From Telmatocola sphagniphila (GTDB lineage: Bacteria; Planctomycetota; Planctomycetia; Gemmatales; Gemmataceae), in NCBI RefSeq assembly GCF_018398935.1, contig NZ_CP074694.1, positions 5,700,001 through 5,732,000 of the forward strand: a DNA stretch of 32,000 nucleotides. Direction: 5' to 3'. Numbering within the stretch: the stretch's first letter is position 1; every line of letters starts with the position of its first letter. Of the stretch, positions 480 to 30,693 are shown one piece after another. The translations under genes were made by a program, and so were the position numbers. The notes under the pieces were generated by a model. The model was not told where the DNA came from and made no database searches. It was given only the letters and a program-made list of their open reading frames with translations.

Positions 480-2480
480 TTGCCTGATGAAATTCCAGTA
501 TCGTCGCCTCCGCCCAATCCAATCCATTTAAGCTCAGATGTTGCCGAGGGAAATCGGGACTCGAAAGGTCCGGATTTCGAGTCTACCCCGATTGAAAGTG
601 GCAAAACAGCATCAACCAGAGCATACCCCGCGGGACTCGCTTCGGAAGCGCCGAATTCCGATTTGATCAATGGAAGCCCCACTGGCGAATTGGTTACGCC
701 TGATTCTAAGCTTCCCAAGTACAAATCGATTGACAGTCGAGATATTCCAACGATTGAAGGATTTAGAAATTTAGAACTGATCGATCAGGGGGGAATGGGA
801 GTAGTTTACGAAGGCTACGATTCGCTCGGTCGGCGAGTCGCCATTAAAATGATACGTGCCTCGCGGATGAGCGAGACAAGTTTAACTCGGTTCCGCGAAG
901 AAGCGGAAGCCATGGCTCACCTAGAACACCCTAACATTGCACCGGTTCTGAATTATGGCTCGGTCAATGGTTGCCCTTATTACGTGATGAAATACTTCAG
1001 TGGAGGAAGCCTCGCTAAACGGATGGAGGAATTCCGCAAAGATCCTCGAAAATCCCTGGTCTTGATTGCGAAAATTGCCAAAGCAGTTGAATTTTTGCAT
1101 TCCAAAGGGCATTTGCATCGCGATATCAAACCGCAGAATATCCTTCTGGACGAGAAGGACGAACCCTACTTGAGTGACTTCGGCCTAGTCAAACGCCAAT
1201 CCGAGGATTTGCGGCAAGTTAGCGATTCGATTTCTGCTGAATTCCCAGCTTCTAAGAATCCAGACCCAAGCTCGCGAGAGAACGAATTTCGCGATTATTT
1301 TACGTTAGCTGGGCAGTTTGTTGGCACTCCTGGGTATTCATGTCCCGAACAGTCAAAAGGTCAACTCGAGGCGGCCGGGCCACTTTGGGACATCTGGTCC
1401 TTGGGCGCGGTGCTCTATGAGCTTTTGACAGACCGAAAGCCATTCCTTTTTAAATCGAGTAAAGAATACAGTGAAATCATCAGTCAGCAGGATGTTAAAG
1501 CCCCGATTGAAATTAACCGCTCGATAGACAAACGAATCAACAAACTTGTGGTTAGTTGTTTGGCTCGGGAACCCAGTAAGCGGTTGCAAAGCGCTGAGAA
1601 GATTCACGAACAAATCATGAGAGTGGTCCACCCTCCCAAACGAGGCGTCTGGATCTTTTTGGTGCCAATCTTTGCGATTGCTTTCGTCGCTTCATTCATG
1701 CCCTGGAAATCGACTCCCGAACAGATAGAAGCCAGATTACAAGCTGCCGCAAGCAAGAAATTGCTGACCGGACAGCCCGTTGAGATCGTGAGTCCCACCG
1801 GAGAGGAGAAAGTTCCGCTCATTGTGGCTTCTCCGAAAGAGTACAGCCGAAAATATATCCATCAAGGCATGATTTACCTGGAGTCCGACTCCTCTTGTCT
1901 CGTAGACTGCATACGGTCGGTACCCGTGCCTAATTTCAGCTTTCAATTCGATTTTTATCTAAATTCCAAACCTGCCGAAGACACGATGGTAGGAATTTAT
2001 TTCGACCGACAAGAAACGACGAAGGAAGATCTCGTTTACCAACAAGTTATCATGTGCAAGCTGACTGCAAATGGAAAGAATCAAGAGAAAAAAACCGATC
2101 CGATGCCGTTTGATGTGGTAGTGGGTCACACTTTTTTTCCATACGATCAGGTATCAATGCGAACATTTTTGCAAACTTACCCTCCCGACCGGCATAAAGG
2201 AATCCAAAGAATTCCAGAGCTCAAAGAAAAAGAGTGGCACAGTTTAAAACTGGAGGCAAAGGCGGATGCCATCATTTATTCGCTGGATAATCTGACGCTT
2301 CATAGATTGCGTCGACCCTACTCCGAAGTATTGAGATCGGCTTTACGGAAATTTGCCAAAGATACTCACGGAAGCGACTACAATCCAGATATTCTTGGAA
2401 ACGCCTGTGGAATTTACATCAAGCAAGCAGGTATCCAAATTCGCAATGTCCGGATTGAACCGGGCGAACCTTCTCGGTAA
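480..2480 (+). CDS. Membrane-anchored Ser/Thr protein kinase with a C-terminal concanavalin/DUF1080-like domain
   Basis: 666-codon ORF starting at TTG 480, with SD-like GAGGGA at 467-472. Kinase motifs in the translation: GGMGVVY..VAIKMI, HRDIKPQNILL, SDFG, GTPGYSCPE. One hydrophobic helix (WIFLVPIFAIAFVASF). The tail EWHSLKLEAKADAIIYSLDN...IQIRNVRIEP resembles the DUF1080 lectin fold. Confidence 0.9.
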   Translation: MPDEIPVSSPPPNPIHLSSDVAEGNRDSKGPDFESTPIESGKTASTRAYPAGLASEAPNSDLINGSPTGELVTPDSKLPKYKSIDSRDIPTIEGFRNLELIDQGGMGVVYEGYDSLGRRVAIKMIRASRMSETSLTRFREEAEAMAHLEHPNIAPVLNYGSVNGCPYYVMKYFSGGSLAKRMEEFRKDPRKSLVLIAKIAKAVEFLHSKGHLHRDIKPQNILLDEKDEPYLSDFGLVKRQSEDLRQVSDSISAEFPASKNPDPSSRENEFRDYFTLAGQFVGTPGYSCPEQSKGQLEAAGPLWDIWSLGAVLYELLTDRKPFLFKSSKEYSEIISQQDVKAPIEINRSIDKRINKLVVSCLAREPSKRLQSAEKIHEQIMRVVHPPKRGVWIFLVPIFAIAFVASFMPWKSTPEQIEARLQAAASKKLLTGQPVEIVSPTGEEKVPLIVASPKEYSRKYIHQGMIYLESDSSCLVDCIRSVPVPNFSFQFDFYLNSKPAEDTMVGIYFDRQETTKEDLVYQQVIMCKLTANGKNQEKKTDPMPFDVVVGHTFFPYDQVSMRTFLQTYPPDRHKGIQRIPELKEKEWHSLKLEAKADAIIYSLDNLTLHRLRRPYSEVLRSALRKFAKDTHGSDYNPDILGNACGIYIKQAGIQIRNVRIEPGEPSR

Positions 2481-6367: not shown

Positions 6368-6598
6368 TCAAATAGGTCCTGATGAGAATAAAGTGCTCAG
6401 GCTGATTCGAAGATTCCGGGCAATTAATCGCAGGTTCAAAAGCGAGAGATTCCGTTCCCCTCGTTCGACAGAACCAATAAAAGTGCGATGCAATTGACAT
6501 TTCTCAGCCAATTCCGCTTGAGTCCAACCTTTCTTTTCCCGAACTTCTCGGATCCGGGATCCAAGTAAGCGGAGGAATTCTTGATCGTCGAGATTCAT
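6368..6598 (-). CDS. XRE-family helix-turn-helix transcriptional regulator (76 aa from ATG 6598; alternative GTG at 6619)
   Basis: Translation LGSRIREVREKKGWTQAELAEKCQLHRTFIGSVERGERNLSLLNLRLIARNL is a textbook Cro/C1/controller-type HTH_3 pattern. The gene is divergent from the 6784 gene. Confidence 0.85.
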   Translation of the reverse strand: MNLDDQEFLRLLGSRIREVREKKGWTQAELAEKCQLHRTFIGSVERGERNLSLLNLRLIARNLRISLSTLFSSGPI

Positions 6599-6783
6599 AC
6601 TTGACGACCATCCTGCCACTACCGATGATGTGTTTAAGTATCATTTTGGAGATGTCTTTAAGTTTCCTTCGACGGATCGCCTCCGCCTAAAACCTACCGT
6701 ATCCCAGCCGGCTTCGATAAGCGAAGCCAATTCTGCACTGAGGAATTCCTTTGTTACAGGAACCTTCAGGAGATTTCGCTCGC

Positions 6784-9700
6784 ATGAAACTCACCTCCTG
6801 GCTCGAGAGAGCCGCTCGTATCCTCCTGCTGGTCTCCATCGCATTAGTCGTCGTCGGATCCTGGACAGATCTATCCCTACGCCCAGCACATCCCGAGCGA
6901 GAATCACTCATCGCATCCTTCCTTCCTCCCGCAGGTTCCGAACGGACCTATTTGGAACAACTGGCACAAAGCGATCCACAAGCCTTGGAATTCTACCTGC
7001 AGCTGACACCCACCTCCGAGCGGCGGGAAGCTTTAAGTTCCCTGGCCGAAAAAGCCGTTCTAAAGCAACCTTGTATCCGTTATGAACTCTGCAAGAGGAT
7101 CGCCCGGGAATCGGCGACGACGGCCCCCGAGAAGGCTCGATTTCTGATTGCGCAGTCGGCCTATTTGAAAAGCCTCGAACATGATCCTCAACGGCAGAAG
7201 GGATATTTGGACGCTTTGAGCAAAGATCCTCACGCCGTTCGGAACGGTTTTACAGGATGGGATCACGCCGTTCGGGCGGCTCTGGCGGATCCTGATCTGT
7301 GGTCTTATTACCAAGACGAGAAGAGCACTCAAACGAGTCCTTTCTGGCTGGATGAGGTACTACTGACGATCCTTCAGTTGACTCCAGACGGCCAGGAACT
7401 CAAGCATTCTCCGGAGTTGGTGCGAGAGATTGTTGCCGCCGCCCGGAAGTATGATCCGATTGCTCGTCGAATCGTCCGCGACCTTCAGTTAGGAGCAGAG
7501 GGAATGCTCCTGTTAATCCAATACGGACCGCTGATCGAGCAAGCCGTTCGCGAGCAGTTGGATCTTCAGGAAGTGCTCGAAATCCTCTACGCTAACCCGG
7601 GAGAATTCGAAGGGGGGGAATCGTCGGAGTTGGTCCTTCAGATGAAAGAGATCTATTCGAAGAACCCCGCTGTTTGGAATTCCGCCCGTCACTTTCCTTT
7701 ATGCTGGAAACTCCATCGCGAGTTTCCCAAGGAGGCTTCCCAACTGCTCGAGAAATTCGCGGTCGATGATATCGCGAGCTTCCTCTACCTCCACTACCCG
7801 GAGCAAATGCCCGAAGCGATCTCCGCCCTGCGGTCAACAGGAGATGCCGCTTTAGGTACGCTGAGACATTTCGCGGAAGTCCGAAGTGATAATCGGGAGA
7901 TCTTCAAGGACCTTCTGAAAAAGCAGGGATGGCGAGTGATACCCTATTATTTGAAGTACGGCGACTCGGGACTGCAGCGTCTTCGAGAAAACCCTGAAGA
8001 TACCAAGTGGCTGGATAAGGATTTCGATGCGGAGGGCCATATCGTCAATCCGGGCTGGATCGCGGATCTCCCGGTTCTCTCGGGTCCAGTAATGGCTTTT
8101 CGGCACGGAATCGAGGGGACACTCGAATGGGAGGAGGTCGGCTGGGCCGCTTTAGATTTGACAGATGCGGCTGCCTTGGTGGGTACCTCCGGTGTTTCGT
8201 TAATTTGGTCAGTCGCCAAGAATTCCGCCAAGATCGGCTCCAAGAAAGCTCTGAAGCGTGTGTTACCCCGGGAGGCTCGGGAGATCCTGCTTCAAGAAAC
8301 GAAATCTATAACAGCCAAACCAGCGATCAGTCGAGTCGCTAAGCGTCAGGCGTTCCGCGATAAGTCGCTTCCCTCTCTACTTCGGACGGCTTCGCAACCG
8401 ACGGGATCGGGAAAGTACCTACTCTCGCACGGAACGCATCTGATTCTTCCTCAGTTGAGTATGTCGCTGCAGACCGTTCTCAAAAACATTCAGCTAGCCG
8501 TTCAGAAAGTTGAAAAGACAATTCCAAAAATCCGAGATCTTCGGCAGAGCCTTTCCCCTGCGAATTCCCGGGCGTCGGCGCGTTCCGAAAATCTTCCTTC
8601 GGAGGAGTTTCTGCTATATCTGAAGCACCCCGATCAACTAGTGGTGCTCCAAACGCAGCTATTCGATGTCTCCCTCCTGAGTCGTTGGAATTCGCCTTCG
8701 GAGTTTCTGGAGCCAGGCTCTACCGTAAACTTCGGCACAGATATCAGCGCCACGGAATTGGCCGAAGAGATTCTCTCGTTTTGGAGTCCGGCTTCCAGGG
8801 TGTTTCCCGTTCAAGACGTAGAGAACCCAGTCAGAAAAATAGGCTTTTTTCTCGCGCTGGGCTCGCTCACTTTGTTTATCCTAGTCGGAGCAATTCGATA
8901 CCATTTAGTTCGTCCTTGGGCACCGGATCGGATCTTGATCGGTTCGATGATTTTGTGTTTCGTCGTACTCGGTTTGAGCATCCGAGTCTTCTTTAGTGCT
9001 TCCTCGCCTGCCAGTTCGGAGTTGACTCTGGCTCGCCTGAAACAGGATTCCCTCTGCTGGGAGCAGCGATTGGCCGAAGTGTTGGACAGTTCCGACCCGA
9101 CGGTTTTGAGAGAACGAGATCTGTTGGTCGAAACCGTTCTGCAAGATTATCGCCAGCAATTATCGGAAAGCTCCGGTCGGTCCGATCTCCAAAGAAAAGA
9201 ACAGTCGCTCCGGCTTCTCAAACGGTTCTTCCCTATTCTCGCGAGAGCCCAAGTGGAGAATTTGATCGCTGAAGTCCATCGGCTTCGAGAGGAGCAGGAT
9301 TATAAGAAGGTGCAGTCGGAATTCGAAAACGGAATTTCTTCCTTCAAGGAATCGGCCCAGCGATTTCTATCCGAATATCCCCGTTCCGAATCCAAAAAGG
9401 AAGTCCACAAATGGATTAATGAAAAGATCGGTAAAGAGGTTGGGGACCTTCGAGTGAAGATTCAGCAGATCGAGAATAGCAATCTCTCGGGAATCGCGGA
9501 ACGAGCCAAAGAACTGGCGAAACTCTGCGATCAGCTTTCTCGGACGGATCCCGAACGAAATCGCATCCAATCCGCCTTGAAAGTCGCACACCTATTGATG
9601 AGTGAAAAAGAGTTCACCCTGGCTTTGCGTAATTCTGGCGAGTTCCAAGTCGCGGAATTCCACCGGGTCGTGATTACTTGCGGAGACGAAACGGTTCATT

Positions 9701-10005
9701 CTTGCACCAGCCCTTCGCGAGTCCAAATTCAAGATTGGACGGACGAATTCAAGCTGAAGTGGCAGCCGGAAAAATCAATCAAAATCGAGCTTCGCCTCGG
9801 CAGTACCGTAATATTTTCCAGATCCCTTTGTGCCGAGACTGAAGTGAAGGGAGAGTGGTCTATCTTGGACTTGAATGGCAAGAAAGAACTCGAAGTCAGA
9901 TCGGCTCGATTCCTGGGAACTCCCTATGTCACATTGGAGATACTGGATTTCACCTCGGAGGAGGAAAAAGCCTTTAGAACCTATTTCCTCGGCAAGGATT
10001 GGTAA
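6784..10005 (+). CDS. Large (1,073 aa) membrane/coiled-coil protein of unknown function
   Basis: Uninterrupted ORF; ATG 6784 with AGGAG at 6768-6772. N-terminal anchor ILLLVSIALVVVGSW, then a long helical region. Two internal hydrophobic helices (IGFFLALGSLTLFILVGAI / ILIGSMILCFVVLGLSIRVFF), about 200 aa of charged heptad-like sequence, and a C-terminal beta-looking domain. No motif I can name. Confidence 0.8.
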   Translation: MKLTSWLERAARILLLVSIALVVVGSWTDLSLRPAHPERESLIASFLPPAGSERTYLEQLAQSDPQALEFYLQLTPTSERREALSSLAEKAVLKQPCIRYELCKRIARESATTAPEKARFLIAQSAYLKSLEHDPQRQKGYLDALSKDPHAVRNGFTGWDHAVRAALADPDLWSYYQDEKSTQTSPFWLDEVLLTILQLTPDGQELKHSPELVREIVAAARKYDPIARRIVRDLQLGAEGMLLLIQYGPLIEQAVREQLDLQEVLEILYANPGEFEGGESSELVLQMKEIYSKNPAVWNSARHFPLCWKLHREFPKEASQLLEKFAVDDIASFLYLHYPEQMPEAISALRSTGDAALGTLRHFAEVRSDNREIFKDLLKKQGWRVIPYYLKYGDSGLQRLRENPEDTKWLDKDFDAEGHIVNPGWIADLPVLSGPVMAFRHGIEGTLEWEEVGWAALDLTDAAALVGTSGVSLIWSVAKNSAKIGSKKALKRVLPREAREILLQETKSITAKPAISRVAKRQAFRDKSLPSLLRTASQPTGSGKYLLSHGTHLILPQLSMSLQTVLKNIQLAVQKVEKTIPKIRDLRQSLSPANSRASARSENLPSEEFLLYLKHPDQLVVLQTQLFDVSLLSRWNSPSEFLEPGSTVNFGTDISATELAEEILSFWSPASRVFPVQDVENPVRKIGFFLALGSLTLFILVGAIRYHLVRPWAPDRILIGSMILCFVVLGLSIRVFFSASSPASSELTLARLKQDSLCWEQRLAEVLDSSDPTVLRERDLLVETVLQDYRQQLSESSGRSDLQRKEQSLRLLKRFFPILARAQVENLIAEVHRLREEQDYKKVQSEFENGISSFKESAQRFLSEYPRSESKKEVHKWINEKIGKEVGDLRVKIQQIENSNLSGIAERAKELAKLCDQLSRTDPERNRIQSALKVAHLLMSEKEFTLALRNSGEFQVAEFHRVVITCGDETVHSCTSPSRVQIQDWTDEFKLKWQPEKSIKIELRLGSTVIFSRSLCAETEVKGEWSILDLNGKKELEVRSARFLGTPYVTLEILDFTSEEEKAFRTYFLGKDW

Positions 10006-10284
10006 GGATTTTCGGATTACTTTACAGGATCGGAAGTGATCCCTAGCTCGGAGAAGAATGAGTAGCGGGATCGATGATTATTACCAAACCCAGTGGGGCG
10101 AATCAGTTCTGGCTTTCTAGTTGCTCAACGTGTTTTTACCGATTCCTGACGCCCGCGAGTTTCGAATGCTGGCAGCAAGGTTTCTAAAATTGAGCTCCGA
10201 TAGAGGCGAATAGCAGACCGAGGGCTAGGGGATTATTGGCGAAATTCGAGACACCTGCAGCAGGGGCATTTAGGAAAGCGATCT

Positions 10285-11406
10285 ATGAGTTCCATTTACC
10301 GACTTGAAGATTTGTTACCGCGCTGGCAGGAAAGGATGGCTCCACTAGTTGCGGACCAAACGGAGGCTTTGGTCGAAGAAATGCTCCGGCCGATGCCGAC
10401 CTGGATCAACTCCGCTGACCCCGCGCAGCAGTATCAGCTGGAAGATACCCTGCGTCGAAAAGCCGAAGAATTGGCAGTTACCACTCTACTGCCCCAGGGG
10501 CTGGATTGGCTAAACCAGCAAAATTTCGGACCTTCGCCCGCAAAGTCAGAAAGAGTCAAGATCGAACTCCTTTCGGCGATTCGTCAGAGAATTCCCGCTT
10601 GCCAACTGTTCCTTCCCAAGCCGACTCAGGAAATCCCGACGCGATCCTGGGTATACTCGGCCGCCTTGGGGGCCGGAATTGGATGCCTCCTCCTCACGCC
10701 GTTGAGTTTACTGTTACTAGGAGAGCGGGAACCCGGTTTAGCGTTAGGAGGCGTCGTAGGAGCGGGTTCGGCTGTCGGTGCTATCGGTTGGCTCTCGCGG
10801 CAATCGAAATTCCAACGTTACGCGGAATTCATCCTGGCGGCGACGACACTGACTTCCGGGGTAGTAGGACTCTATAGGTTAATCCGCCGGGACTCTTTAG
10901 GATTGCTGAAAACGGCCGGCTGGTTCGGAGCCGGCTGGCTATTAGTAACCTTGGCCCGACCGAGAAAGGTCGGGTTGTCCCATTCGGAAAGCGGGGAGAT
11001 CCTCCAACCGCAGGTTCGAGCCTACTTGAATCATCTTGCCGACCTGGTTTTAAGTTTGTGCTGGTCGCACCCCGACCGAGAGGACAAAATTCTCTCATCC
11101 TCCTCGGAATCGAACGGAATTCCCGAATCGATTGCCGACGCTCTGGGAGTCATTCGCCAAATCTGCGACGATCCCCAATCCGCCGAAAAACATTTATCAG
11201 GTGCCGTCCGGATTTTGATGCAGCGCATTCGCGACCAGGGATACGAATGGCGGACGATTCCTTCCGGTACGCTCTATTCCGACGATCTGAAAAACTTGTT
11301 CGAAGTATTCGGGATGGTCGAGATCGGTCAACCTGTGGAAACTTTGAATCCGGCCTGGGTCCATCGGGGGCAGGTACTTAAAGCGGGTCTCGTACGAAAG
11401 ATCTAA
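10285..11406 (+). CDS. Four-TM membrane protein with a GrpE-like C-terminal domain (putative nucleotide-exchange partner of the downstream Hsp70-like ATPase)
   Basis: Hydrophobic block at aa ~120-225 (about 4 helices). The tail RILMQRIRDQGYEWRTIPSGTLYSDDLKNLFEVFGMVEIGQPVETLNPAWVHRGQVLKAGLVRKI follows the GrpE C-terminal pattern (G.e.i...G..FDp......g.v.....pG....g.vL+.A.V.V). The stop lies 21 nt before the next gene's ATG. Confidence 0.8.
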   Translation: MSSIYRLEDLLPRWQERMAPLVADQTEALVEEMLRPMPTWINSADPAQQYQLEDTLRRKAEELAVTTLLPQGLDWLNQQNFGPSPAKSERVKIELLSAIRQRIPACQLFLPKPTQEIPTRSWVYSAALGAGIGCLLLTPLSLLLLGEREPGLALGGVVGAGSAVGAIGWLSRQSKFQRYAEFILAATTLTSGVVGLYRLIRRDSLGLLKTAGWFGAGWLLVTLARPRKVGLSHSESGEILQPQVRAYLNHLADLVLSLCWSHPDREDKILSSSSESNGIPESIADALGVIRQICDDPQSAEKHLSGAVRILMQRIRDQGYEWRTIPSGTLYSDDLKNLFEVFGMVEIGQPVETLNPAWVHRGQVLKAGLVRKI

Positions 11407-11427
11407 TCGATTCCTGGGAGAATAGAT

Positions 11428-13554
11428 ATGGCGTCTTCACTTCCCAACGGCATGAAAGAACTGCCACTTTTGGGATACATAGGAATCGATTTTGGAACCA
11501 GCACTACCCATATTGCAGTCTGTTATCTCGACGGCAATACGGTTCCGCAGGCAGTTCCTCTGGCCGGTAAATCCTCGATTCTTACCTGTCTGTTATTGAG
11601 AGAAGCCAACTCCAACGGCGAGGCTGTCGTCGCCTATGGGGAAAAGGCTCTGAGGACTTGGTTCACTCTGAGTGATTCAGAACGAAAGAATCATCGTTTC
11701 GCAGTCGGTTTCAAACCCGATATTATTAGTGGCTCGCGGGCGGGAATTGCTCAAAGCGACTCCAGAGCGTTTTTGACCAAATGCTTTCAGGCCGTTCGAG
11801 AGAGTGGCGTAGTTCGAGCTCTGGGCCGAGAAGAAGGAATGCCGGTCGTGATTGGCGTTCCGGCCGAAATCAGCGAACTGCAAAAGCGTACGACGGCCGA
11901 GCTGGCGGAACAGGCCGGGTTCGGAAAGGTGAACTCTTTAGAAGAACCGCTCGGGGCCTTAGCCTATCATCTGGCGGATGGCTCGGTATCGGGAGCGGAA
12001 GCCCGTACCGGGGTCTTGGTGATCGATTTTGGTGGCGGGACTCTGGATATCGCTTGGCTGAACTCCTCAAAAGGAATGGCAGCTCCTTGGGGAGATCCCC
12101 TTCTGGGAGGCCGGTTATTCGATGACATCTTTTATCAGTGGCTTCTTCAACAGAATCCGCAGATCGAATTATCCGATGCCGATCAATTCTTCGTTTGGCA
12201 AGCGACTTGTCGCGAACTCAAGGAAAAGTTCAGTACCCACTGGCAGGACGAATTGGATAGCTCCCAAAAGCCCGCTCTTGAGGCGATTGAATACCAAGAT
12301 CTTTTGGCCCTTCCCGGACGCCGGTTCGCAGAGTTTCGAGGAAGTGTACCAGAGTTCTTGAATCGAACTCAGCGATACCGGCCTAGCTCTGTCGCCCAAG
12401 AGTATTTTTCGAAAGTTGATTCCCGGTTGCGGGATTTAGGAAAAGAGAAGCCGGTCGATCTCCTGGATTGGATTCGAAGAGAACTCACGCGCGGGTTCAA
12501 CCAGAATCAACATCCCCTGGCGTTGATTATCTTGACCGGCGGGAGCTGTAAGTGGCCGTTCATGCGAGACTTGGCCGTCGACGCCTTCGGCCTCAAGCGG
12601 GAGTGTGTCCGACGGTCTCCCGATCCGGAAACAACGATCGGTTCGGGATTGGCAGTTTACAACGTATTGAAGCATCGGAATGCCCTGAAACGGCAAAAGT
12701 TACACGAAGAGTTCCCGACGTATAAAGAAAAATTCCAGAGGAGGGTCGAGGAGAAAATCGACGAGTTTACCCGGCAAACCGCTATGGCTGTCGTGCTCCC
12801 TTTGATGAAGCAGGTCGAATCTCTCTTTCTCAAGTGGTATAGCGAAGGGGGGGCCCTGAAATCGGTACAGGAAAACATCCAGACATTTGTTGAAAACTAC
12901 GATGTCAAAAACACATTACAAGCCCGCGACAAACTGCTTGCTGAAGACTTGATGCGATTGATTCGAGATTACCTGGGGATCTGGCTCAAGGAGCATTCGA
13001 TCCACCGCAAAGTCGAGGATTTGCTTCCTCCCGGAACGCTCACGGTTCCTGTTCCAGAATTAGGGAGTTTTACCAATGAGATCACCAAAATCATTTCTAA
13101 TCTCGTCGTAATCGGACTGACCGGAACCATTTTTGGAATCGTGTATTTGGCCGCCCATGGCACGCATATTCTGGCGCATCCCTTGACCGGATTGCCGATC
13201 GCACTCGCTTCGGCACTCGCGGCTGGCCTCGGTTTCCAGCGAATCGAGGAACCACTCCGCCGCAAAGTCCTCGAGTTTGAGTGGGGTCAAAACTCTTTGA
13301 AGGCTCTCAAGCTCGCACTTTCTGAGAATCGATTGAAAGAGAAAATCGCCGAAAGTCAGCAAAAAGCGATTCAGGAGATCCAGGATCTCTTGAAGGGAGC
13401 AGGTCCTCGCGATCAAGCTCCGACTGCGGCAAGACCATCTTCCTCCTGGAACAACCTACAAGAACTTCGGGCCCGCGTGACCGGGCAGTTTGAAGATATT
13501 GTCAACAAGGTGATCGAAGATCTGGGAGTACTCGAAGAGATTCGACGAGATTAG
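11428..13554 (+). CDS. Hsp70/actin-fold ATPase (DnaK-like NBD) without a canonical substrate-binding domain, with a C-terminal TM hairpin and coiled-coil tail
   Basis: GGGAG at 11416-11420, 7 nt before the ATG. NBD motifs in canonical order: IGIDFGTSTTHIAV, VIGVPAEISELQKRTTAELAEQAGF, VLVIDFGGGTLDIAWL, IILTGGSCKWPFM, TTIGSGLAVY. These are followed by helical sequence and two hydrophobic helices (IISNLVVIGLTGTIFGIVYLAA, LTGLPIALASALAAGLGF). Confidence 0.9.
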   Translation: MASSLPNGMKELPLLGYIGIDFGTSTTHIAVCYLDGNTVPQAVPLAGKSSILTCLLLREANSNGEAVVAYGEKALRTWFTLSDSERKNHRFAVGFKPDIISGSRAGIAQSDSRAFLTKCFQAVRESGVVRALGREEGMPVVIGVPAEISELQKRTTAELAEQAGFGKVNSLEEPLGALAYHLADGSVSGAEARTGVLVIDFGGGTLDIAWLNSSKGMAAPWGDPLLGGRLFDDIFYQWLLQQNPQIELSDADQFFVWQATCRELKEKFSTHWQDELDSSQKPALEAIEYQDLLALPGRRFAEFRGSVPEFLNRTQRYRPSSVAQEYFSKVDSRLRDLGKEKPVDLLDWIRRELTRGFNQNQHPLALIILTGGSCKWPFMRDLAVDAFGLKRECVRRSPDPETTIGSGLAVYNVLKHRNALKRQKLHEEFPTYKEKFQRRVEEKIDEFTRQTAMAVVLPLMKQVESLFLKWYSEGGALKSVQENIQTFVENYDVKNTLQARDKLLAEDLMRLIRDYLGIWLKEHSIHRKVEDLLPPGTLTVPVPELGSFTNEITKIISNLVVIGLTGTIFGIVYLAAHGTHILAHPLTGLPIALASALAAGLGFQRIEEPLRRKVLEFEWGQNSLKALKLALSENRLKEKIAESQQKAIQEIQDLLKGAGPRDQAPTAARPSSSWNNLQELRARVTGQFEDIVNKVIEDLGVLEEIRRD

Positions 13555-15093: not shown

Positions 15094-15366
15094 TCACGCT
15101 CGTCGACGAAGTTTGCGGCGCCAGTTTGCCGGATAGTCGACACCGTGTCGCGACAGAGTTTGTTTGAGTTCTCGAAAAGCGCTATCGCCGAAGTTCGGTA
15201 TGGTTCCGAAGAAACTCGGTTTCTGTTGCAGCAGCTGGTCGACGTAAAGGATATGGTGCTTCTCGAGCGCGTTGGCGATGCGTACCGGCAGGTCCAGTTC
15301 TGCGATAGCGCGGTCCTGCGGTTTGACTTCGATGATCGGCGGACGTCTTCGTCTTGCTTTCGACAT
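15094..15366 (-). CDS. Stand-alone RNA polymerase alpha-subunit C-terminal-domain (alpha-CTD)-like DNA-binding protein (90 aa)
   Basis: IAELDLPVRIANALEKHHILYVDQLLQQKPSFFGTIPNFGDSAFRELKQTLSRHGV aligns position by position with E. coli RpoA CTD [56 protein letters not shown]. Confidence 0.8.
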   Translation of the reverse strand: MSKARRRRPPIIEVKPQDRAIAELDLPVRIANALEKHHILYVDQLLQQKPSFFGTIPNFGDSAFRELKQTLSRHGVDYPANWRRKLRRRA

Positions 15367-15569: not shown

Positions 15570-17300
15570 TGCGATTCGAAGCAGCACAAGTTTTGCCGGA
15601 TTTTCTTTTTTGTCGAGTGCCCTTGCTGGTGTTCCAACTGTATTAGCTCCCCGCAGGATAAAACTCCGACTCTGTCGCTCAGTCCCGAGTTGTTCGAGTG
15701 CGGATTTAGATTACGCGGATCGTACGGCTCGATGATGATATCTCTGCCGATCTGCGGGGCGTTTCAGAACCTGCGAATACAGCCATAGTTGTACTTTCGT
15801 TATAATGTTAATAAAGACGTACAAGCTCTTCAACACCTTAGGCGAGTAGAAGGGTCGGATAAGGGGCTCCGAAACGATTCTGGTTGATTTTTTGGCTATT
15901 AGCGTTGATTTAGAAAGCGATCAGCCGTCCGATTGTACGACAAACAGTTAATTATTTAGATGAAGGTTTAAATATGTATCTGAAAGAAGTGTTGACAGAT
16001 CGTTTCCAGCGTTTTTTGTTCCTGGTTATTTTCCCGCCGCAGCTTCTGAGGAAGAGCAGCCCATCCAGGTTGCTTTCGTGTACGCTGGTGCAGAGCTTTT
16101 TGGCAGCGAGAATCCAGGTATCTTGCAATCGTCGAATCGCATCTCGGCCGAGTCCTTGTCGCACATCGGAATCTTTGACGACCAAGCGTCGAATGCGAAC
16201 GGCAGCTTCTACCTACTTGTATATCACCACGCCTCTAATAGTGCTTCCTACTTTCAACAATCGAACTAAATGATTTCGACTTTTTGTCCGCTGTGCCGTC
16301 AGGACTTTGGCGCACCATCGCTCTCCGGGAAAAGCGTCTTACAAACTACGTGCGGTTGCTTCCGCTTCGGCTTGCTCGATCCAGATAAAACTCAAATCGT
16401 CCGTTGTTATCCTTTGTGGGGCCTGAGTAGGATTTTCGAGGAGTTTTTCTAAATCGAACTCCTCCATAGCAATCCGAGCTAACTTGGATAATTTATCCGC
16501 CATCTGATTCCATACGAGCAACTCTCGTCTATCCTAGTTCCAATTCAGAATTAATTCGTTTCTGTAATATACGTCGAACAGATTCCAGATCGCCGCGTTT
16601 TTCATTCCGCCGCGATCTCGATCATTGCCGCTATCGGCGACGTTCGCACTATCCGTGAATATCTGAACTTGCAAGAGGCGGCGTACGCCAGTCTCTTCTC
16701 GTTCTCTGTCGAGACTAGCGATCAGACCTGCGGGATGGCCGGGTGCTGGAGTTGGCCGGTGATGCGGGCCTCGTTGGCGAACCGGCGGCGGCACCGAGAT
16801 TACTCTCATTCACGAGAGCTTCGAGAATATCGAAAGTCAAAAGGGCCATTGCCACGGCTGGACGGGATCGTTGCAACAGTAGGCTGCTTTGCTGGAAAAA
16901 GAATGGTCGAAACGATCGAAATAAGTCTAACGACGGCCTGATTGGGTCCTCCGGGAGTTATCTAACTCCTGGCGGACGGACGATGATCCGCAGTCTGCTC
17001 TCACGCCTTCACAACGCATCCGCTAACTTCGCTAAAGAGCTTTCAATGCGATAATATTTTTGAATTTTGCATTTTTTTGAGATTGCTTCCTTTCCAGTCG
17101 ATCATTACACTTTGAGACTCTCTCCAAACCATTAAGGCGAGCAAGTTCTGGTTCTCGCCAGCCATGGTTATTCCCGTTCCTTTTAATCGAAGATAGAACT
17201 GATAAGCGACCTTCCCTGATCGGCGATTCGGACGATAGGGATGGGAGCCCAATGCCCTGTTTTCAACCAAAGAAATCGAGTATCGAATAAAGGCGTATCC

Positions 17301-18743
17301 ATGCCAATTGCGTTTCGCTGCGAATCCTGTCAAGTCAAGTTGAAGGCGCCCGATGGGTCGTCGGGCCGGTCTATCGCCTGTCCCGGTTGTAAAACGCGGG
17401 TGACCATTCCTACACCCCCTTCGGAAGATGAAGTAGCCGCCGCATTACTGTTGGATTCGCCCATTTCTGAGGATACTCCCTCCGCCCCCGAAGTGAACAC
17501 TTCCGAACCGGATTGTTATGATTCGGATCCCTTGTCCAAGACCGAGCGGAAGAATACCCTTCTCAAGCAGTTCGAGGATCCGCCCCAGGCGAAAATTCCG
17601 GTCGGAGGCCAACTTCACGCCCCGCCTTCGAAGCCAAAAGTCTCCCCAGTGAAATCGAACGATCCGCCGGGCTGGTTTCGCCACTTGCACTGGTTGCTGA
17701 TCGCCGCGCTGATACCTTTGGCATTTTCGCTACTGCGTAAGCCATCGGAGGCGGACGAACCGATTCCCCGACTTCTAAGAACACTTGAAAATTCCAACCC
17801 TGAAGTAGAACATCGCATCACTGCGGCACTCGAAAGCAGCAATGATCCAGAGGCCGCTTTTGAACGGATTTTCGAAATATTACCCCAGCACAAATTCGAT
17901 GGGGCCTTCCTGCCTCGTAACAGCAAACTTCACTGGCTTTTCGCGGGTCTCTCCGCCACTGTCTTTTTGATATTCATTTACTCTCTGTCTCTATTCGGCA
18001 CTGCCGACCCCAAGCGATTACTTTGGATCGGGCTCTTTACCGGCACAGTTGGCGTGCTGATGTTATTTTTGTTTCAGTACATCGCCGATGCGACCTATGG
18101 GGTGACTCTGATCGGCCGTAGCGTGCTGATCATTTTCTTTTACATCGTCAAATTCATTGGGTTCTCTTATCGTGCGGCCACCGACCCGGATAACGGCTTT
18201 CTGCTCAGCTTCGTCGGCTTTACTCTTGGAGTCGGCTTTTGCGAAGAGGTGTGCAAGGCCGTTCCGCTCTTGTTTAAACATTCCCAGCAGGAAAGCCAAA
18301 GCTGGCGAAATGCGTTCCTCTGGGGGATGGCCTCGAGCGCGGGATTCGGCATCTCGGAGGCCGTGGTTTACGCGGGTGGGCAATACAACGGCATTTCCAG
18401 TTCAGGCATCTATTTGGTCCGCTTTATATCCTGCGTCGCGTTGCATGCACTTTGGACTGGTTCCGCAGCCATTACGATTCAACAGAAACCGGACTGGGTG
18501 AATACCGATGGCTGGTTCGAGTACGGGGCGAGTCTCTTCCGAATACTGGCGATACCGATCGTGTTGCATGGCCTCTACGACACGTTCCTGAAGAAAGACA
18601 TGAATGCGCTGGCTTTACTGACGGCCTTAGCCAGCTTCGGTTATCTGGCCTTCCAGTTGAGCCGCTTGCAGGGAGAGGATGACCGTAACCGAACCGATGC
18701 CATGCTTCGCGATTATCAGCGCAAGAAAAAGGCAATGGCATAG
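17301..18743 (+). CDS. PrsW-family intramembrane protease with an N-terminal zinc ribbon
   Basis: N-terminus CESCQVKLKAPDGSSGRSIACPGCKTRV (CxxC..CxxC), then an acidic/proline linker and multiple TM helices. PrsW signature residues: FCEEVCKAVPLL (EExxK), ALHALWTG, VLHGLYDTF. ATG 17301 is preferred over the ORF-track start at 17241. Confidence 0.85.
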   Translation: MPIAFRCESCQVKLKAPDGSSGRSIACPGCKTRVTIPTPPSEDEVAAALLLDSPISEDTPSAPEVNTSEPDCYDSDPLSKTERKNTLLKQFEDPPQAKIPVGGQLHAPPSKPKVSPVKSNDPPGWFRHLHWLLIAALIPLAFSLLRKPSEADEPIPRLLRTLENSNPEVEHRITAALESSNDPEAAFERIFEILPQHKFDGAFLPRNSKLHWLFAGLSATVFLIFIYSLSLFGTADPKRLLWIGLFTGTVGVLMLFLFQYIADATYGVTLIGRSVLIIFFYIVKFIGFSYRAATDPDNGFLLSFVGFTLGVGFCEEVCKAVPLLFKHSQQESQSWRNAFLWGMASSAGFGISEAVVYAGGQYNGISSSGIYLVRFISCVALHALWTGSAAITIQQKPDWVNTDGWFEYGASLFRILAIPIVLHGLYDTFLKKDMNALALLTALASFGYLAFQLSRLQGEDDRNRTDAMLRDYQRKKKAMA

Positions 18744-28039: not shown

Positions 28040-29463
28040 GGCTCTTCCGTTTCTAGGTGTAGCATTCAGAGAAATACTTCTGGATCTGGTTGACGAAGCC
28101 GCGAATCTCCGCAATGGTCGGCCCTAATTTTTTCGCTGCCCAATTCACGTCCAGGAGTATTCTCGTCCAGAGCGTAGTTAGACTCTGAATTCCATAACTC
28201 CGACGTAGCACTACCCGAATCTTGGTATTGAGTCCTTCCACCGGGCCGCTGCTTTTGCGTTCCTCGAAGTAGGCTAAGATCCCCTCCCAATTGTTCTTGA
28301 GCATCGTGATGAACGGCTCCCAATCCATCTCGGTCTCGCGGGCCTGGACGATCCAATCTTCCAACAGTCGCGAGGCTTCGGCTCGGTTCGGGGCACTATC
28401 GAAGATTTTGGTCGCCTCCCAACGCAGATGGTAGATCGTTCCCAACGAAGGCACCTTCTCGAACAAATCCTCGAGGGCCTGGACCTGCTCCGGATTCAAA
28501 TCCTCGGGACGACGCCGGAAGTCGTGCATCTGAGAACGCAGCTTCTTGCGGGCTTCCCCGCTCAAACTTCGCTTGTAGGCTCGATAGTTTTTTTTCGCAG
28601 ATCGTCTGCCACCTCCCCCAATTTCTTGGCGACGTGAAAGCGATCTATCACCGACTGGCTGTTGGGTAAATGCACGCCGCAAGCCTTCAAATACGCCGGG
28701 CTCATGTCCGTATGATGCCAACGCACCCCCGCACGTTGCTGGGCCGACAAACGCTCCAAACACGCTCGCCCCGCTGCTTCGTCGCGACCCTTGGACAGAG
28801 CCAGAATCTCCGGACGCTCCCCATTCGTCAGGTCCGTCAATATTGTCGCATATCCCTTATGCCCCTTACGCAGGCTGATCTCATCCAGACCCAAACGCTC
28901 GATCTTCCGCTGGGGATCGATCTGCTTCGCCTTGGCGTCCTCTATCCGGTTCTTGACGATTCGCTCCACCGTCTCCGCGGCGATCCCCAAACGCACTGCC
29001 ACGTCTTCGGCTGTGCTCCCGATCAGACTGACCAGCACCTGCTCCTCGAAGCGGAACGTATATTTCACATCCCGACGCTTGAAGGGCGGCAACAGCGATT
29101 GACGGTGACCGCACGACGGACAGCGGTGATACACCTCCTGGTACACGAAAAAGCTCGGCTTACCCCACAAATCCAGATCGCGGATGCTCAGAAACTTGTT
29201 CTTCTCCACCAATTGAAGCCGAGACTCTCGCTGGCATGTCTCGCAACAAAGATTGTCGGGCAACTCCCAACTCACGTGAAAGGCGTGGCCCCCGTCGATG
29301 CGTTCGTATTCGCCAACGCTCACTCCGGCAGGAACGTCCATGTCTATGGCAATGGTAGTCGTCGTCATCGGCTCTTCCGTGAACCAGGAAAAGGGTACTC
29401 TCAATTGCAATCTATCCCAAAATGACCGATTCGCCGAGAGTTGCGCCTAAAAACGGAAGAACC
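28040..29463 (-). mobile_element. ISL3-family insertion sequence, copy 2 (1,424 bp)
   Basis: Same termini as copy 1, with one mismatch in IRL (GGTTCTTCCG). 8-bp direct repeat ATAATGCA at 28032-28039 and 29464-29471. Confidence 0.9.
28053..29368 (-). CDS. ISL3-family transposase (438 aa if a -1 shift occurs at the A8 run; otherwise two overlapping ORFs)
   Basis: Family patterns present: zinc fingers (CCETC, CPSCGH), LGLDEISLRKGHKGYATILTDL, HHTDMSPAYLKA, IDRFHVAKKLGEVADDLRKK. The frames overlap at CGAAAAAAAACT (run at 28588-28595 on the plus strand). A -1 slip gives ..DLRKKNYRAYKRSLSGEARKKL... Confidence 0.8.
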
Positions 29464-29778: not shown

Positions 29779-30693
29779 AGAAGCTCTAACAAAACCCCTG
29801 CTTGGTATGGCATTTGCGCTCCAGAATCTAGCCCGGATTCAGGAGCGCTGTCATGGCTCGTTCAGAATTACCCGATGAATTTTGGCAAGAGATTGAACCT
29901 TTACTTCCTCCCGATACGCTTCCCGGCGAGCAAGGGGGACGGCCGCGCATACCCAATAAAACGGCCATGCGAGGCATCTTTTACATTCTGACCACCGGAA
30001 TCCGCTGGGAGGATATCCCTCGCGAAATCGGATGCAGCGGCATGACTTGCTGGCGTCGTCTCAGAGACTGGCAGAAACTCTCCTTATGGGATCAATTGCA
30101 TCGTTTGATTTTGGCGCAGTTGCGTAAGGCCGAGAAGATCGACCTCTCTTTGGTCGTCGTCGATAGCACGATTTCTCGAACCGTTGGCGGGGGAGAGCAG
30201 ACCGGCCCCAACCCTACGGATCGACGTAAACCCGGCACTAAACAGCACTTAATTGTCGATCGCAACGGTATTCCCCTGGAGATACGCGTCACCGGAGCTA
30301 ATCGCCACGATGTGAGGGAGATCATTCCTCTGGTCATCAATATACCAGCGATAGGAGGAAAGCCCGGTGCTCCGATTCATAAGCCCAAGGTCGTGCAAGC
30401 GGATCGAGCCTACCACGATCAATGGGTGGATGCGTTGCTCTATTGGATGGGCATCATTCCGCGCATCGCTAAGCGAAATACTCCTCACGGCAGCGGCTTG
30501 GGGAAAACTCGGTTCGTGGTCGAGCGAACCATATCTTGGATTCGAGGGTTGCGGAGATTGCGAGTGAGGTTCGACCGCCACGATTACATTTACCAAGCCT
30601 GGAATTCTCTCGCCATGGCATTTATCTGCTGGAGAACTTTAATCGAATAACCCAATTGCAATTTTTTAAAAACAGGGTTTTGTTAGAGGTTCT
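29779..30693 (+). mobile_element. IS5-family insertion sequence (IS427-like size class, ~915 bp), apparently intact
   Basis: Left end AGAAGCTCTAACAAAACCC. Right end on the other strand AGAACCTCTAACAAAACCC (18/19). Possible TA duplication at 29777-29778 and 30694-30695; the exact ends are uncertain by a few nt. Confidence 0.75.
29853..30650 (+). CDS. IS5-family DDE transposase (265 aa, single ORF)
   Basis: LPDEFWQEIEPLLPP..GRPRIPNKTAMRGIFYILTTGIRWEDIP..CWRRLRDWQ (DUF4096-type N-terminus), then VVDSTISRT.., ADRAYH.., RFVVERTISWIRGLRRLRVRFDR (DDE_Tnp_1-type). Confidence 0.9.
   Translation: MARSELPDEFWQEIEPLLPPDTLPGEQGGRPRIPNKTAMRGIFYILTTGIRWEDIPREIGCSGMTCWRRLRDWQKLSLWDQLHRLILAQLRKAEKIDLSLVVVDSTISRTVGGGEQTGPNPTDRRKPGTKQHLIVDRNGIPLEIRVTGANRHDVREIIPLVINIPAIGGKPGAPIHKPKVVQADRAYHDQWVDALLYWMGIIPRIAKRNTPHGSGLGKTRFVVERTISWIRGLRRLRVRFDRHDYIYQAWNSLAMAFICWRTLIE

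Follow-up and report, generated by a model that had tools for sequence, protein, structure and literature searches.

A conserved two-gene unit pairing an Hsp70-type ATPase with a membrane protein of predicted GrpE-like tail in Telmatocola sphagniphila and other bacteria

Gene content of the locus

The chromosome of Telmatocola sphagniphila (Gemmataceae, Planctomycetota) carries two adjacent genes encoding a 373-amino acid (aa) membrane protein, here called p373, and a 708-aa Hsp70-type ATPase. They occupy positions 10285-13554 (+) of the 32,000-nucleotide (nt) stretch analysed here, which is referred to throughout as the window (contig NZ_CP074694.1, positions 5,700,001 to 5,732,000). An earlier note on this DNA had proposed a larger module starting at 6368, in which an XRE-type regulator and a 1,073-aa membrane protein belonged to the same system as these two genes. 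Our analysis showed that the observation was real but mis-bounded and that the true unit consists of two genes. The 708-, 373- and 1,073-aa products were 100% identical to the NCBI proteins of T. sphagniphila, which identifies its chromosome as the source.

All four open reading frames (ORFs) described in the earlier note are present. The first gene of the conserved pair, p373 (KIH39_22830; 10285-11406, +), is annotated only as a 'hypothetical protein' and had no match in Pfam, NCBIfam or PADLOC. The second (11428-13554, +) is annotated by NCBI as 'Hsp70 family protein' and matched Pfam HSP70 with 41.1 bits against a cut-off of 20.6. They are separated by 21 nt (11407-11427, +), in which a GGGAG Shine-Dalgarno sequence can be read 9 nt 5' of the ATG, as had been reported. 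Upstream on the same strand lies the gene for the large membrane protein (KIH39_22825; 6784-10005, +), with an ATG at 6784 in a frame that is open from a TTG at 6751. The 83-aa XRE/HTH_3 protein (6368-6619, -; Pfam HTH_3 E=2.6e-15; PADLOC 'control protein' E=8.6e-19) is divergent from this gene across a 164-bp spacer, which the ORF coordinates place at 6620-6783. Hydropathy analysis (Kyte-Doolittle, 19-residue window) supported membrane segments in all three large proteins, in keeping with their proposed insertion in the membrane.

Conservation and spread of the pair

A p373 homologue was located directly upstream of the ATPase gene, on the same strand and in the same order, in all 18 of the other distinct loci obtained, the two genes overlapping by at most 41 nt or lying at most 85 nt apart. 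These loci came from exact-protein look-ups, a genome scan seeded with the ATPase alignment and a metagenome scan seeded with p373, and their hosts comprised Gemmataceae, Isosphaeraceae, Alpha- and Gammaproteobacteria and metagenomes. The genome scan returned 78 loci, four of which were true family loci and the remainder generic Hsp70 patterns; the p373-seeded scan was specific and small (seven loci). Searches starting from the ATPase and from p373 arrived at the linkage of the two genes independently of each other. The one seeming exception (L095) was a gene-calling error, as the p373 frame is intact there and fits the family hidden Markov model, the caller having annotated an 85-aa fragment only.

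Pairwise distances of p373 and ATPase from 16 loci showed strong co-divergence (Mantel r=0.93), a value reached by none of 5,000 permutations. This correlation indicates that the two genes are inherited and transferred together, and the pair is an obligate, co-evolving two-gene unit. A total of 271 ATPase homologues was found, with full-length relatives of ~680-750 aa in four lineages, namely Gemmataceae, Isosphaeraceae, Acetobacteraceae (Rhodopila, Rhodovastum) and one gammaproteobacterial metagenome-assembled genome (MAG), and the ATPases of the closest relatives were 56%, 54% and 50% identical. An exhaustive HMMER profile search of 1.84 billion proteins placed the p373 family at 269 clusters (50% identity), nearly all of them 320-395 aa in length; the best 150 of these 269 contained no fusions and no proteins other than the p373 family itself. 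Two cultured species, Rhodovastum atsumiense and T. sphagniphila, possess the pair, and no match to it was obtained in phage genomes, plasmids or viral contigs. Its rarity, its patchy spread across phyla and its accessory-type neighbours mark the pair as a rare accessory chromosomal module that is horizontally mobile among soil and peat bacteria. Occurrence in Alpha- and Gammaproteobacteria also weakens the link to planctomycete endomembranes that had been suggested. The pair recurs across bacterial phyla and appears to be undescribed, as had been supposed: none of the families in Pfam, NCBIfam or PADLOC covers the two genes, and literature searches returned related themes only.

The remaining genes of the proposed module did not accompany the pair. 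Homologues of the large protein, of the XRE protein and of a convergent 293-aa ORF downstream were found in 0 of the 18 pair-bearing loci, even beside the ATPases that are 50-56% identical, so that co-occurrence held for the pair and failed for the trio and the quartet. These results bear directly on the proposal of a four-gene system with the XRE protein as regulator of the pair and the 1,073-aa protein as its client, scaffold or effector. Such a system would be consistent with three large adjacent genes on one strand that all encode membrane segments, with the 279-nt gap between the large gene and p373, in which no terminator-like site was found, and with the habit of conflict systems to place variable effector genes beside a conserved core. 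Against it, neither the role given to the large protein nor that given to the XRE regulator gained comparative support, and the 279-nt gap contrasts with the 21 nt inside the pair. Additionally, a search of 5.8 billion proteins produced a single relative of the large protein, a paralogue from the T. sphagniphila genome itself (KIH39_15615, 59% identical). No second Telmatocola member was present among the best 120 of the 271 ATPase homologues, which suggests that this paralogue works without such a pair. The four-gene system thus appears largely refuted on comparative grounds and is very improbable, and the large protein and the XRE protein are best regarded as lineage-specific neighbours outside the conserved unit.

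Hydropathy of the large protein agreed with the N-terminal anchor and internal transmembrane hairpin described earlier (segments 16-43, 694-717 and 724-753 in 1,084-aa numbering). Residues 745-950 contain 4% P+G and 37% E/K/R/Q, and composition is consistent with the putative coiled coil and C-terminal beta domain. Conservation between the large protein and its paralogue is best at ~190-490 and in the last ~120 residues, and the annotated start of KIH39_15615 leaves out the N-terminal anchor. Scans of the intergenic regions for promoters, terminators and inverted repeats gave counts no greater than those of shuffled sequences.

The 708-aa Hsp70-type ATPase

Residues 1-400 of the ATPase (11428-12627, +) form a nucleotide-binding domain (NBD) of Hsp70/DnaK type according to structure searches and motif alignment. 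An AlphaFold2 (AF2) model was built from a 20-sequence alignment (predicted local distance difference test score, pLDDT, 84; predicted template modelling score, pTM, 0.76), and Foldseek comparison of its NBD with the Protein Data Bank (PDB) returned Hsp70 NBDs as all of the top 50 matches, with E-values down to 5.7e-15 and template modelling (TM) scores up to 0.74. Actin and MreB were not matched. A HMMER alignment to Mycobacterium tuberculosis DnaK brought the phosphate and adenosine motifs into correspondence (GIDFGTS/GIDLGTT, EEPLGALAY/NEPTAAALAY, DFGGGTLD/DLGGGTFD and LTGGSCKWPF/LVGGSTRMPA), and residues D21, K96, E173, D200, T205 and D207 were invariant in 20 members of the family. With phosphate-1, phosphate-2 and adenosine motifs intact, the protein belongs to the Hsp70-type NBD group, and it should bind and hydrolyse ATP, given that its catalytic motifs align with those of DnaK and do not vary within the family. 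The Pfam HSP70 match spans profile positions 135-271 of 599, which is the central part of the NBD, and the NCBIfam DnaK and HscA models scored 41-54 bits against cut-offs of 620-1019. The YegD-type model PRK11678 (NCBIfam) reached only E=5e-4 and FtsA E=0.005, the NBD being closest to DnaK.

After residue 400, no interdomain linker, beta-sandwich substrate-binding domain (SBD) or lid was found, and the AF2 model contains helices only. Taken with the partial Pfam coverage, this upholds the earlier claim that the SBD is missing. The helical region found in place of the linker and SBD (residues ~403-550; 12634-13077, +) is predicted to comprise helices 403-473 (~70 residues), 477-490 and 493-522 at pLDDT 87-95, and an invariant W470-Y-x-x-G474-G475-x-L477 motif (WYxxGGxL) marks a helix turn in the 20-member alignment. 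It is followed by a conserved hydrophobic hairpin (residues 551-604; 13078-13239, +), a putative membrane anchor or paddle that was identified from hydropathy. The hydropathy peak at ~551-604 lies in the same place in 20 of 20 aligned members, and Pro585 in the hairpin turn is nearly invariant. The C-terminal helices (residues 621-708; 13288-13551, +; modelled at 621-656 and 677-707) end in a conserved DLGVLE. A separate search of the C-terminal half against Pfam and the PDB gave no significant match and no SBD.

This anatomy can be weighed against a classical Hsp70 chaperone that is tethered to the membrane and dedicated to folding or extracting particular membrane proteins. An intact Hsp70-type NBD next to an exchange-factor-like partner is what such a chaperone would possess, but the protein has no interdomain linker, SBD-beta or lid, and there is no J-protein among the annotated neighbours, which makes this explanation highly unlikely. 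The latter result, which agrees with the earlier remark that no J-domain gene lies nearby, covers DnaJ (PF00226) in the Pfam-annotated neighbour lists (most flanking genes) and in the scanned ORFs of the window, and a J-protein may be encoded elsewhere in the genome.

p373 and its predicted GrpE-like tail

The AF2 model of p373, which was built from eight sequences, consists of an N-terminal three-helix region, a hydrophobic hairpin (helices 119-145 and 149-172), two weaker helices, a long helix and a C-terminal tail. The transmembrane hairpin (residues 121-171; 10645-10797, +) contains the glycine-zipper motifs G129xxxG133 and G151xxxG155xxxG159, with Arg148 in its short turn, and its two segments (121-148 and 149-171) reach hydropathy peaks of 2.13 and 1.66. 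An alignment of 14 sequences showed G129, G133, R148, L152 and G159 to be invariant and G151 and G155 nearly so; among 82 aligned sequences G133 remained invariant, and G129 and G159 nearly invariant. Two further hydrophobic helices (residues 182-223; 10828-10953, +) are weaker, with hydropathy of 1.55 (182-200) and 1.3 (205-223), and the gammaproteobacterial homologue is without both. The earlier description of p373 as a protein with four transmembrane helices was therefore borne out for the two segments of the hairpin, and the third and fourth are doubtful.

GrpE is a homodimer formed through long N-terminal helices; it binds subdomain IIB of the DnaK NBD and speeds ADP release. The tail of p373 (residues 281-373; 11125-11403, +) is modelled as helices 281-295 and 301-317 followed by six strands at 320-372 (pLDDT 80-85), and two helices followed by six strands is also the order found in GrpE. 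The only compact matches of p373 in a Foldseek search of the PDB were GrpE structures, with probabilities of 0.96 (1dkg_B), 0.97 (3a6m_A), 0.92 (9a81) and 0.60 (8gb3_E) over ~100 columns; these represent GrpE of E. coli, Thermus and M. tuberculosis together with an integrative GrpE-DnaK model. Alignment by hhalign to a three-sequence GrpE alignment, the sequences of which were verified against the PDB, was in register over 95 columns and extended to the C-terminus. From these structural comparisons the tail is predicted, quite probably correctly, to adopt a GrpE-like fold. Obligate adjacency to and co-divergence with an Hsp70-type NBD, and the presence of its tail domain next to other Hsp70-like genes, would lend indirect support to a GrpE-type role of p373. 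No grpE gene was found by tblastn in the fetched loci.

Soluble proteins of ~200 aa that carry the C-terminal domain of p373 without any membrane segments were observed at three further loci (L016:9294-13464, L024:3295-5600 and L017:10655-11608) in Armatimonadota and an unclassified bacterium. They adjoin very distant SBD-less Hsp70-like genes, with tandem copies in L016, and are not recognised by Pfam GrpE. The presence of the domain beside these genes suggests that it partners Hsp70-type NBDs in two architectures, and with the ~200-aa proteins the partnership may exist in a soluble variant as well.

A proposed membrane-embedded ATPase and exchange-factor machine

The earlier note had read the last two genes as a coupled unit of an Hsp70-type ATPase with a partner whose tail is GrpE-like, each with its own membrane segments, and this part of its reading was sustained, the fold of the tail being a prediction. 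We consider it reasonably probable that the two-gene operon at 10285-13554 encodes a self-contained, membrane-embedded machine composed of an Hsp70-type ATPase and an exchange factor. Its ATPase would combine an Hsp70/DnaK-type NBD with a long helical stalk and a hydrophobic membrane hairpin in place of linker, SBD and lid, and p373 would contribute a glycine-zipper transmembrane hairpin and a cytoplasmic C-terminal domain of GrpE-like fold. The number of membrane segments is even in both proteins, so all of their soluble domains would face the cytoplasm. The p373 tail would then dock on the NBD and control ADP/ATP exchange, as GrpE does for DnaK, and the nucleotide cycle would move the stalk and hairpin of the ATPase against the p373 hairpin with its glycine zippers. 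What results may be the opening, closing or reshaping of a small hetero-oligomeric membrane assembly rather than the folding of clients. Exchange-factor activity, topology and membrane output are the parts of this proposal that we infer.

Several results weigh against this proposal. The ATPase hairpin is modelled at pLDDT below 50, and the p373 model has an overall pLDDT of 74 that falls to ~65 in the membrane region. The loop between the two doubtful helices of p373 is Arg-rich, which fits poorly with the topology derived from parity. The Foldseek matches of p373 to GrpE had E-values of 0.13-1 and TM scores (target) of 0.25-0.35, although these E-values are weak because the whole protein served as the query. 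The hhalign comparison gave P=0.031-0.033 with a probability of 1.5-1.6%; Pfam GrpE was not detected at E<=10 in 14 p373 members, and profile searches of PDB sequences with p373 did not return GrpE. Membership of p373 in the GrpE family is consequently not claimed, as sequence-level support reaches P=0.03 at best. Finally, the neighbouring genes give no pointer to a membrane output.

The canonical Hsp70 triad consists of an NBD-SBD chaperone, a J-protein and an exchange factor. Of these, the ATPase and apparently the exchange factor are retained by the pair; the domain that binds clients and the J-protein have been given up, and both remaining components sit in the membrane. Should the two proteins indeed work together, the nucleotide cycle of Hsp70 would have been redirected to a task at the membrane, and the p373 family would gain a first handle on its structure and function. 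It is put forward more speculatively, and as a doubtful extension, that the pair is the founding case of a new class in which an SBD-less Hsp70 gates or reshapes a glycine-zipper transmembrane assembly and an in-membrane GrpE-type factor sets the cycle. If this were true, the Hsp70 NBD would act as a motor on lipid-embedded helices and not as the regulator of a clamp for unfolded clients; the class could include a suicide pore that is licensed by ATP and acts against phages, or a device for membrane repair. The soluble ~200-aa relatives in Armatimonadota would then point to GrpE-like partners of non-canonical Hsp70s as a broader family that has gone unrecognised. The pair is small (two genes, ~3.3 kb), self-contained and present in cultured species, which makes it experimentally tractable.

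One alternative to the general proposal concerns what such a machine would do. The order of NBD, ~70-residue helix with helical bundle and distal hydrophobic hairpin in the AF2 model matches the layout of bacterial dynamin-like proteins (BDLP, DynA, LeoA), which have an N-terminal NTPase, helical stalk bundles and a membrane-inserting hairpin 'paddle'. This can be interpreted as a machine for membrane homeostasis or remodelling that responds to envelope stress by repairing, bending or fusing membrane, with p373 as an exchange factor sensitive to the state of the membrane. In the canonical system the helices of GrpE sense temperature, a precedent for a sensing exchange factor. The chromosomal location of the pair and its absence from phages and plasmids agree with such a role, as does the tandem arrangement of an MMR_HSR1-type GTPase gene (689 aa) and a 596-aa ORF beside the Rhodopila pair. 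However, the NTPase folds are unrelated (GTPase in dynamins, ASKHA/Hsp70 ATPase here), and the likeness is an analogy only, with no statistical support. Pfam hints to a bacterial dynamin-like helical domain (E=0.003) and Dynamin_M (E=0.057) were sub-threshold, came from single members and could reflect helical composition; together with a similar hint to fvmX5 they were rejected as evidence. Envelope-stress genes (Psp, Vipp1, dynamin-like) do not recur across the loci, and the family is too rare and patchy for a general housekeeping task. On balance, the remodelling role is unlikely.

Gene neighbourhoods and a possible role in conflict

No third gene recurs with the pair across the loci, the neighbours of which are heterogeneous and range from housekeeping to accessory genes. 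Mobile-element, toxin-antitoxin or defence-type genes were present within 10 kb in ~11 of the 18 loci. These include a YhcG_C nuclease and a UPF0175/DUF3368 toxin-antitoxin pair (L006), PIN, AAA_21 and McrBC genes (L007), DDE transposase, DUF29, rve integrase and HepT genes (L087, L088, L090) and NmeDI_C (L096).

Such surroundings raise the possibility of a conflict module with an anti-phage or abortive-infection function, in which the ATPase would act as a nucleotide-gated switch or sensor. Once triggered, it would free the p373 hairpin with its glycine zippers, and this hairpin would then perforate the membrane or collapse its potential. The anatomy would be that of the proposed ATPase and exchange-factor machine, with a more specialised function. 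Horizontal spread predicts the rare, patchy and cross-phylum distribution that was found, insertion sequence (IS) elements lie in the window, and a Pfam scan of p373 members gave weak sub-threshold hints to the PycTM, SLATT and holin families. Hsp70-type modules have already been placed in predicted conflict systems (PMC7159879; PMC11090510). Conversely, the core proteins matched no model of known anti-phage systems in PADLOC-DB 2.0, where the ATPase reached only PDC-M61B (E=0.0054, over 50 NBD residues) and the non-conserved XRE protein alone matched a model, and the phage, plasmid and viral-contig collections were without the pair. Five loci (L001, L005, L008, L010 and L094) are flanked by housekeeping or unknown genes only. 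The count of ~11 in 18 stands without a background rate, so that the enrichment in defence islands is suggestive only, and glycine zippers also serve in plain helix packing. A conflict function is tentative and rather unlikely, though ranked slightly above the remodelling role.

Individual loci showed further arrangements. A gammaproteobacterial MAG (L003:12108-13214, also L004) carries a TIR_2 and LRR gene 56 nt 3' of the ATPase gene on the same strand, followed by a convergent gene for an 821-aa N6/N4 methyltransferase, and L003 is the sole locus with an obvious effector-like third gene. At L095 (4327-6798 and 10641-12038), the pair lies between a prophage-type ANT/Bro-N/pRha anti-repressor cluster and an AAA_25 ATPase gene. 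GTPase genes stand beside two of the 18 loci, namely RsgA at L008 and the MMR_HSR1-type gene of Rhodopila at L009. The latter is a weak match and, with the tandem ORF of unknown family, is divergent from the pair (L009:5076-8932, -); by size and arrangement these two genes are a possible dynamin-like pair, which is absent at the related L010. Ser/Thr kinase genes were observed within a few kb of the pair at five planctomycete loci (window 480-2480, L005:5138-8608, L007:7134-8684, L097:2893-6174 and a JGI contig); Gemmataceae are kinase-rich, and the association was set aside as probably due to chance.

Comparison with known systems

The canonical DnaK-GrpE system is the closest in its parts. 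Its NBD type and catalytic motifs are shared by the ATPase described here, a likeness between the p373 tail and the NBD-contacting portion of GrpE is predicted, and the adjacency of the two genes is also alike, as grpE and dnaK are adjacent in many bacteria. In contrast to DnaK-GrpE, the pair is without linker, SBD, lid and DnaJ, both of its proteins are membrane-embedded, and it is rare and accessory where DnaK-GrpE is universal. Compared with GrpE, p373 is twice as large, carries at its N-terminus a helical domain that is unrelated to GrpE, has a hairpin with glycine zippers and shows no Pfam GrpE match.

Other ASKHA-fold ATPases that, like the ATPase here, do without a classical SBD include E. 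coli YegD, animal HSPA12, FtsA and MreB, of which FtsA and MreB attach to the membrane through C- or N-terminal amphipathic elements. The present ATPase differs from these in that its NBD is closest to DnaK, that ~300 aa of helices including a hairpin follow the NBD and that its GrpE-like partner is obligate.

Two published groups of systems share themes with the pair, and neither is membrane-embedded. GAP1-N2/DO-GTPase conflict systems contain accessory Hsp70-type ATPases, some of which lack the peptide-binding domain, together with a GrpE gene (Kaur, Burroughs, Iyer, Aravind 2020, PMC7159879). These systems are defined by a TRAFAC GTPase, have tubulin, FNIII or DnaJ-fused partners and a standard GrpE and occur mainly in Actinobacteria and Firmicutes (PMC7159879). 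The pair instead has a membrane-protein partner and an ATPase with its own hairpin, and a GTPase is not consistently linked to it; no tubulin, FNIII or DnaJ was present in the annotated neighbour lists of the pair loci. CnuD/CnuCD of the type III CoCoNuT McrBC systems is an Hsp70-like ATPase in a non-chaperone accessory system (Bell et al. 2024, PMC11090510). In CnuD the SBD is retained and the ATPase motifs are degenerate, and the protein, which occurs in fusion or linkage with McrC/McrB, has a predicted RNA-binding function (PMC11090510). The ATPase described here differs in its intact motifs, its lack of an SBD and its membrane anchor, and McrBC is not linked to it as a rule.

Other features of the window

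The right half of the window contains a split (frameshifted) ISL3-family transposase (28053-28763 and 28562-29410, -), an IS4/5-family transposase (29853-30650, +) and low-GC patches at 23-24 kb (0.40) and 26-27 kb (0.38), which suggests a variable region rich in mobile elements. Rfam and tRNA scans of the window were negative. A 90-aa stand-alone RNA polymerase alpha C-terminal domain (15094-15366, -; PF03118 E=4e-12) was located amid short unannotated ORFs, and a 500-aa protein (17241-18743, +) carries a C-terminal PrsW-family intramembrane protease domain (E=1.5e-13).

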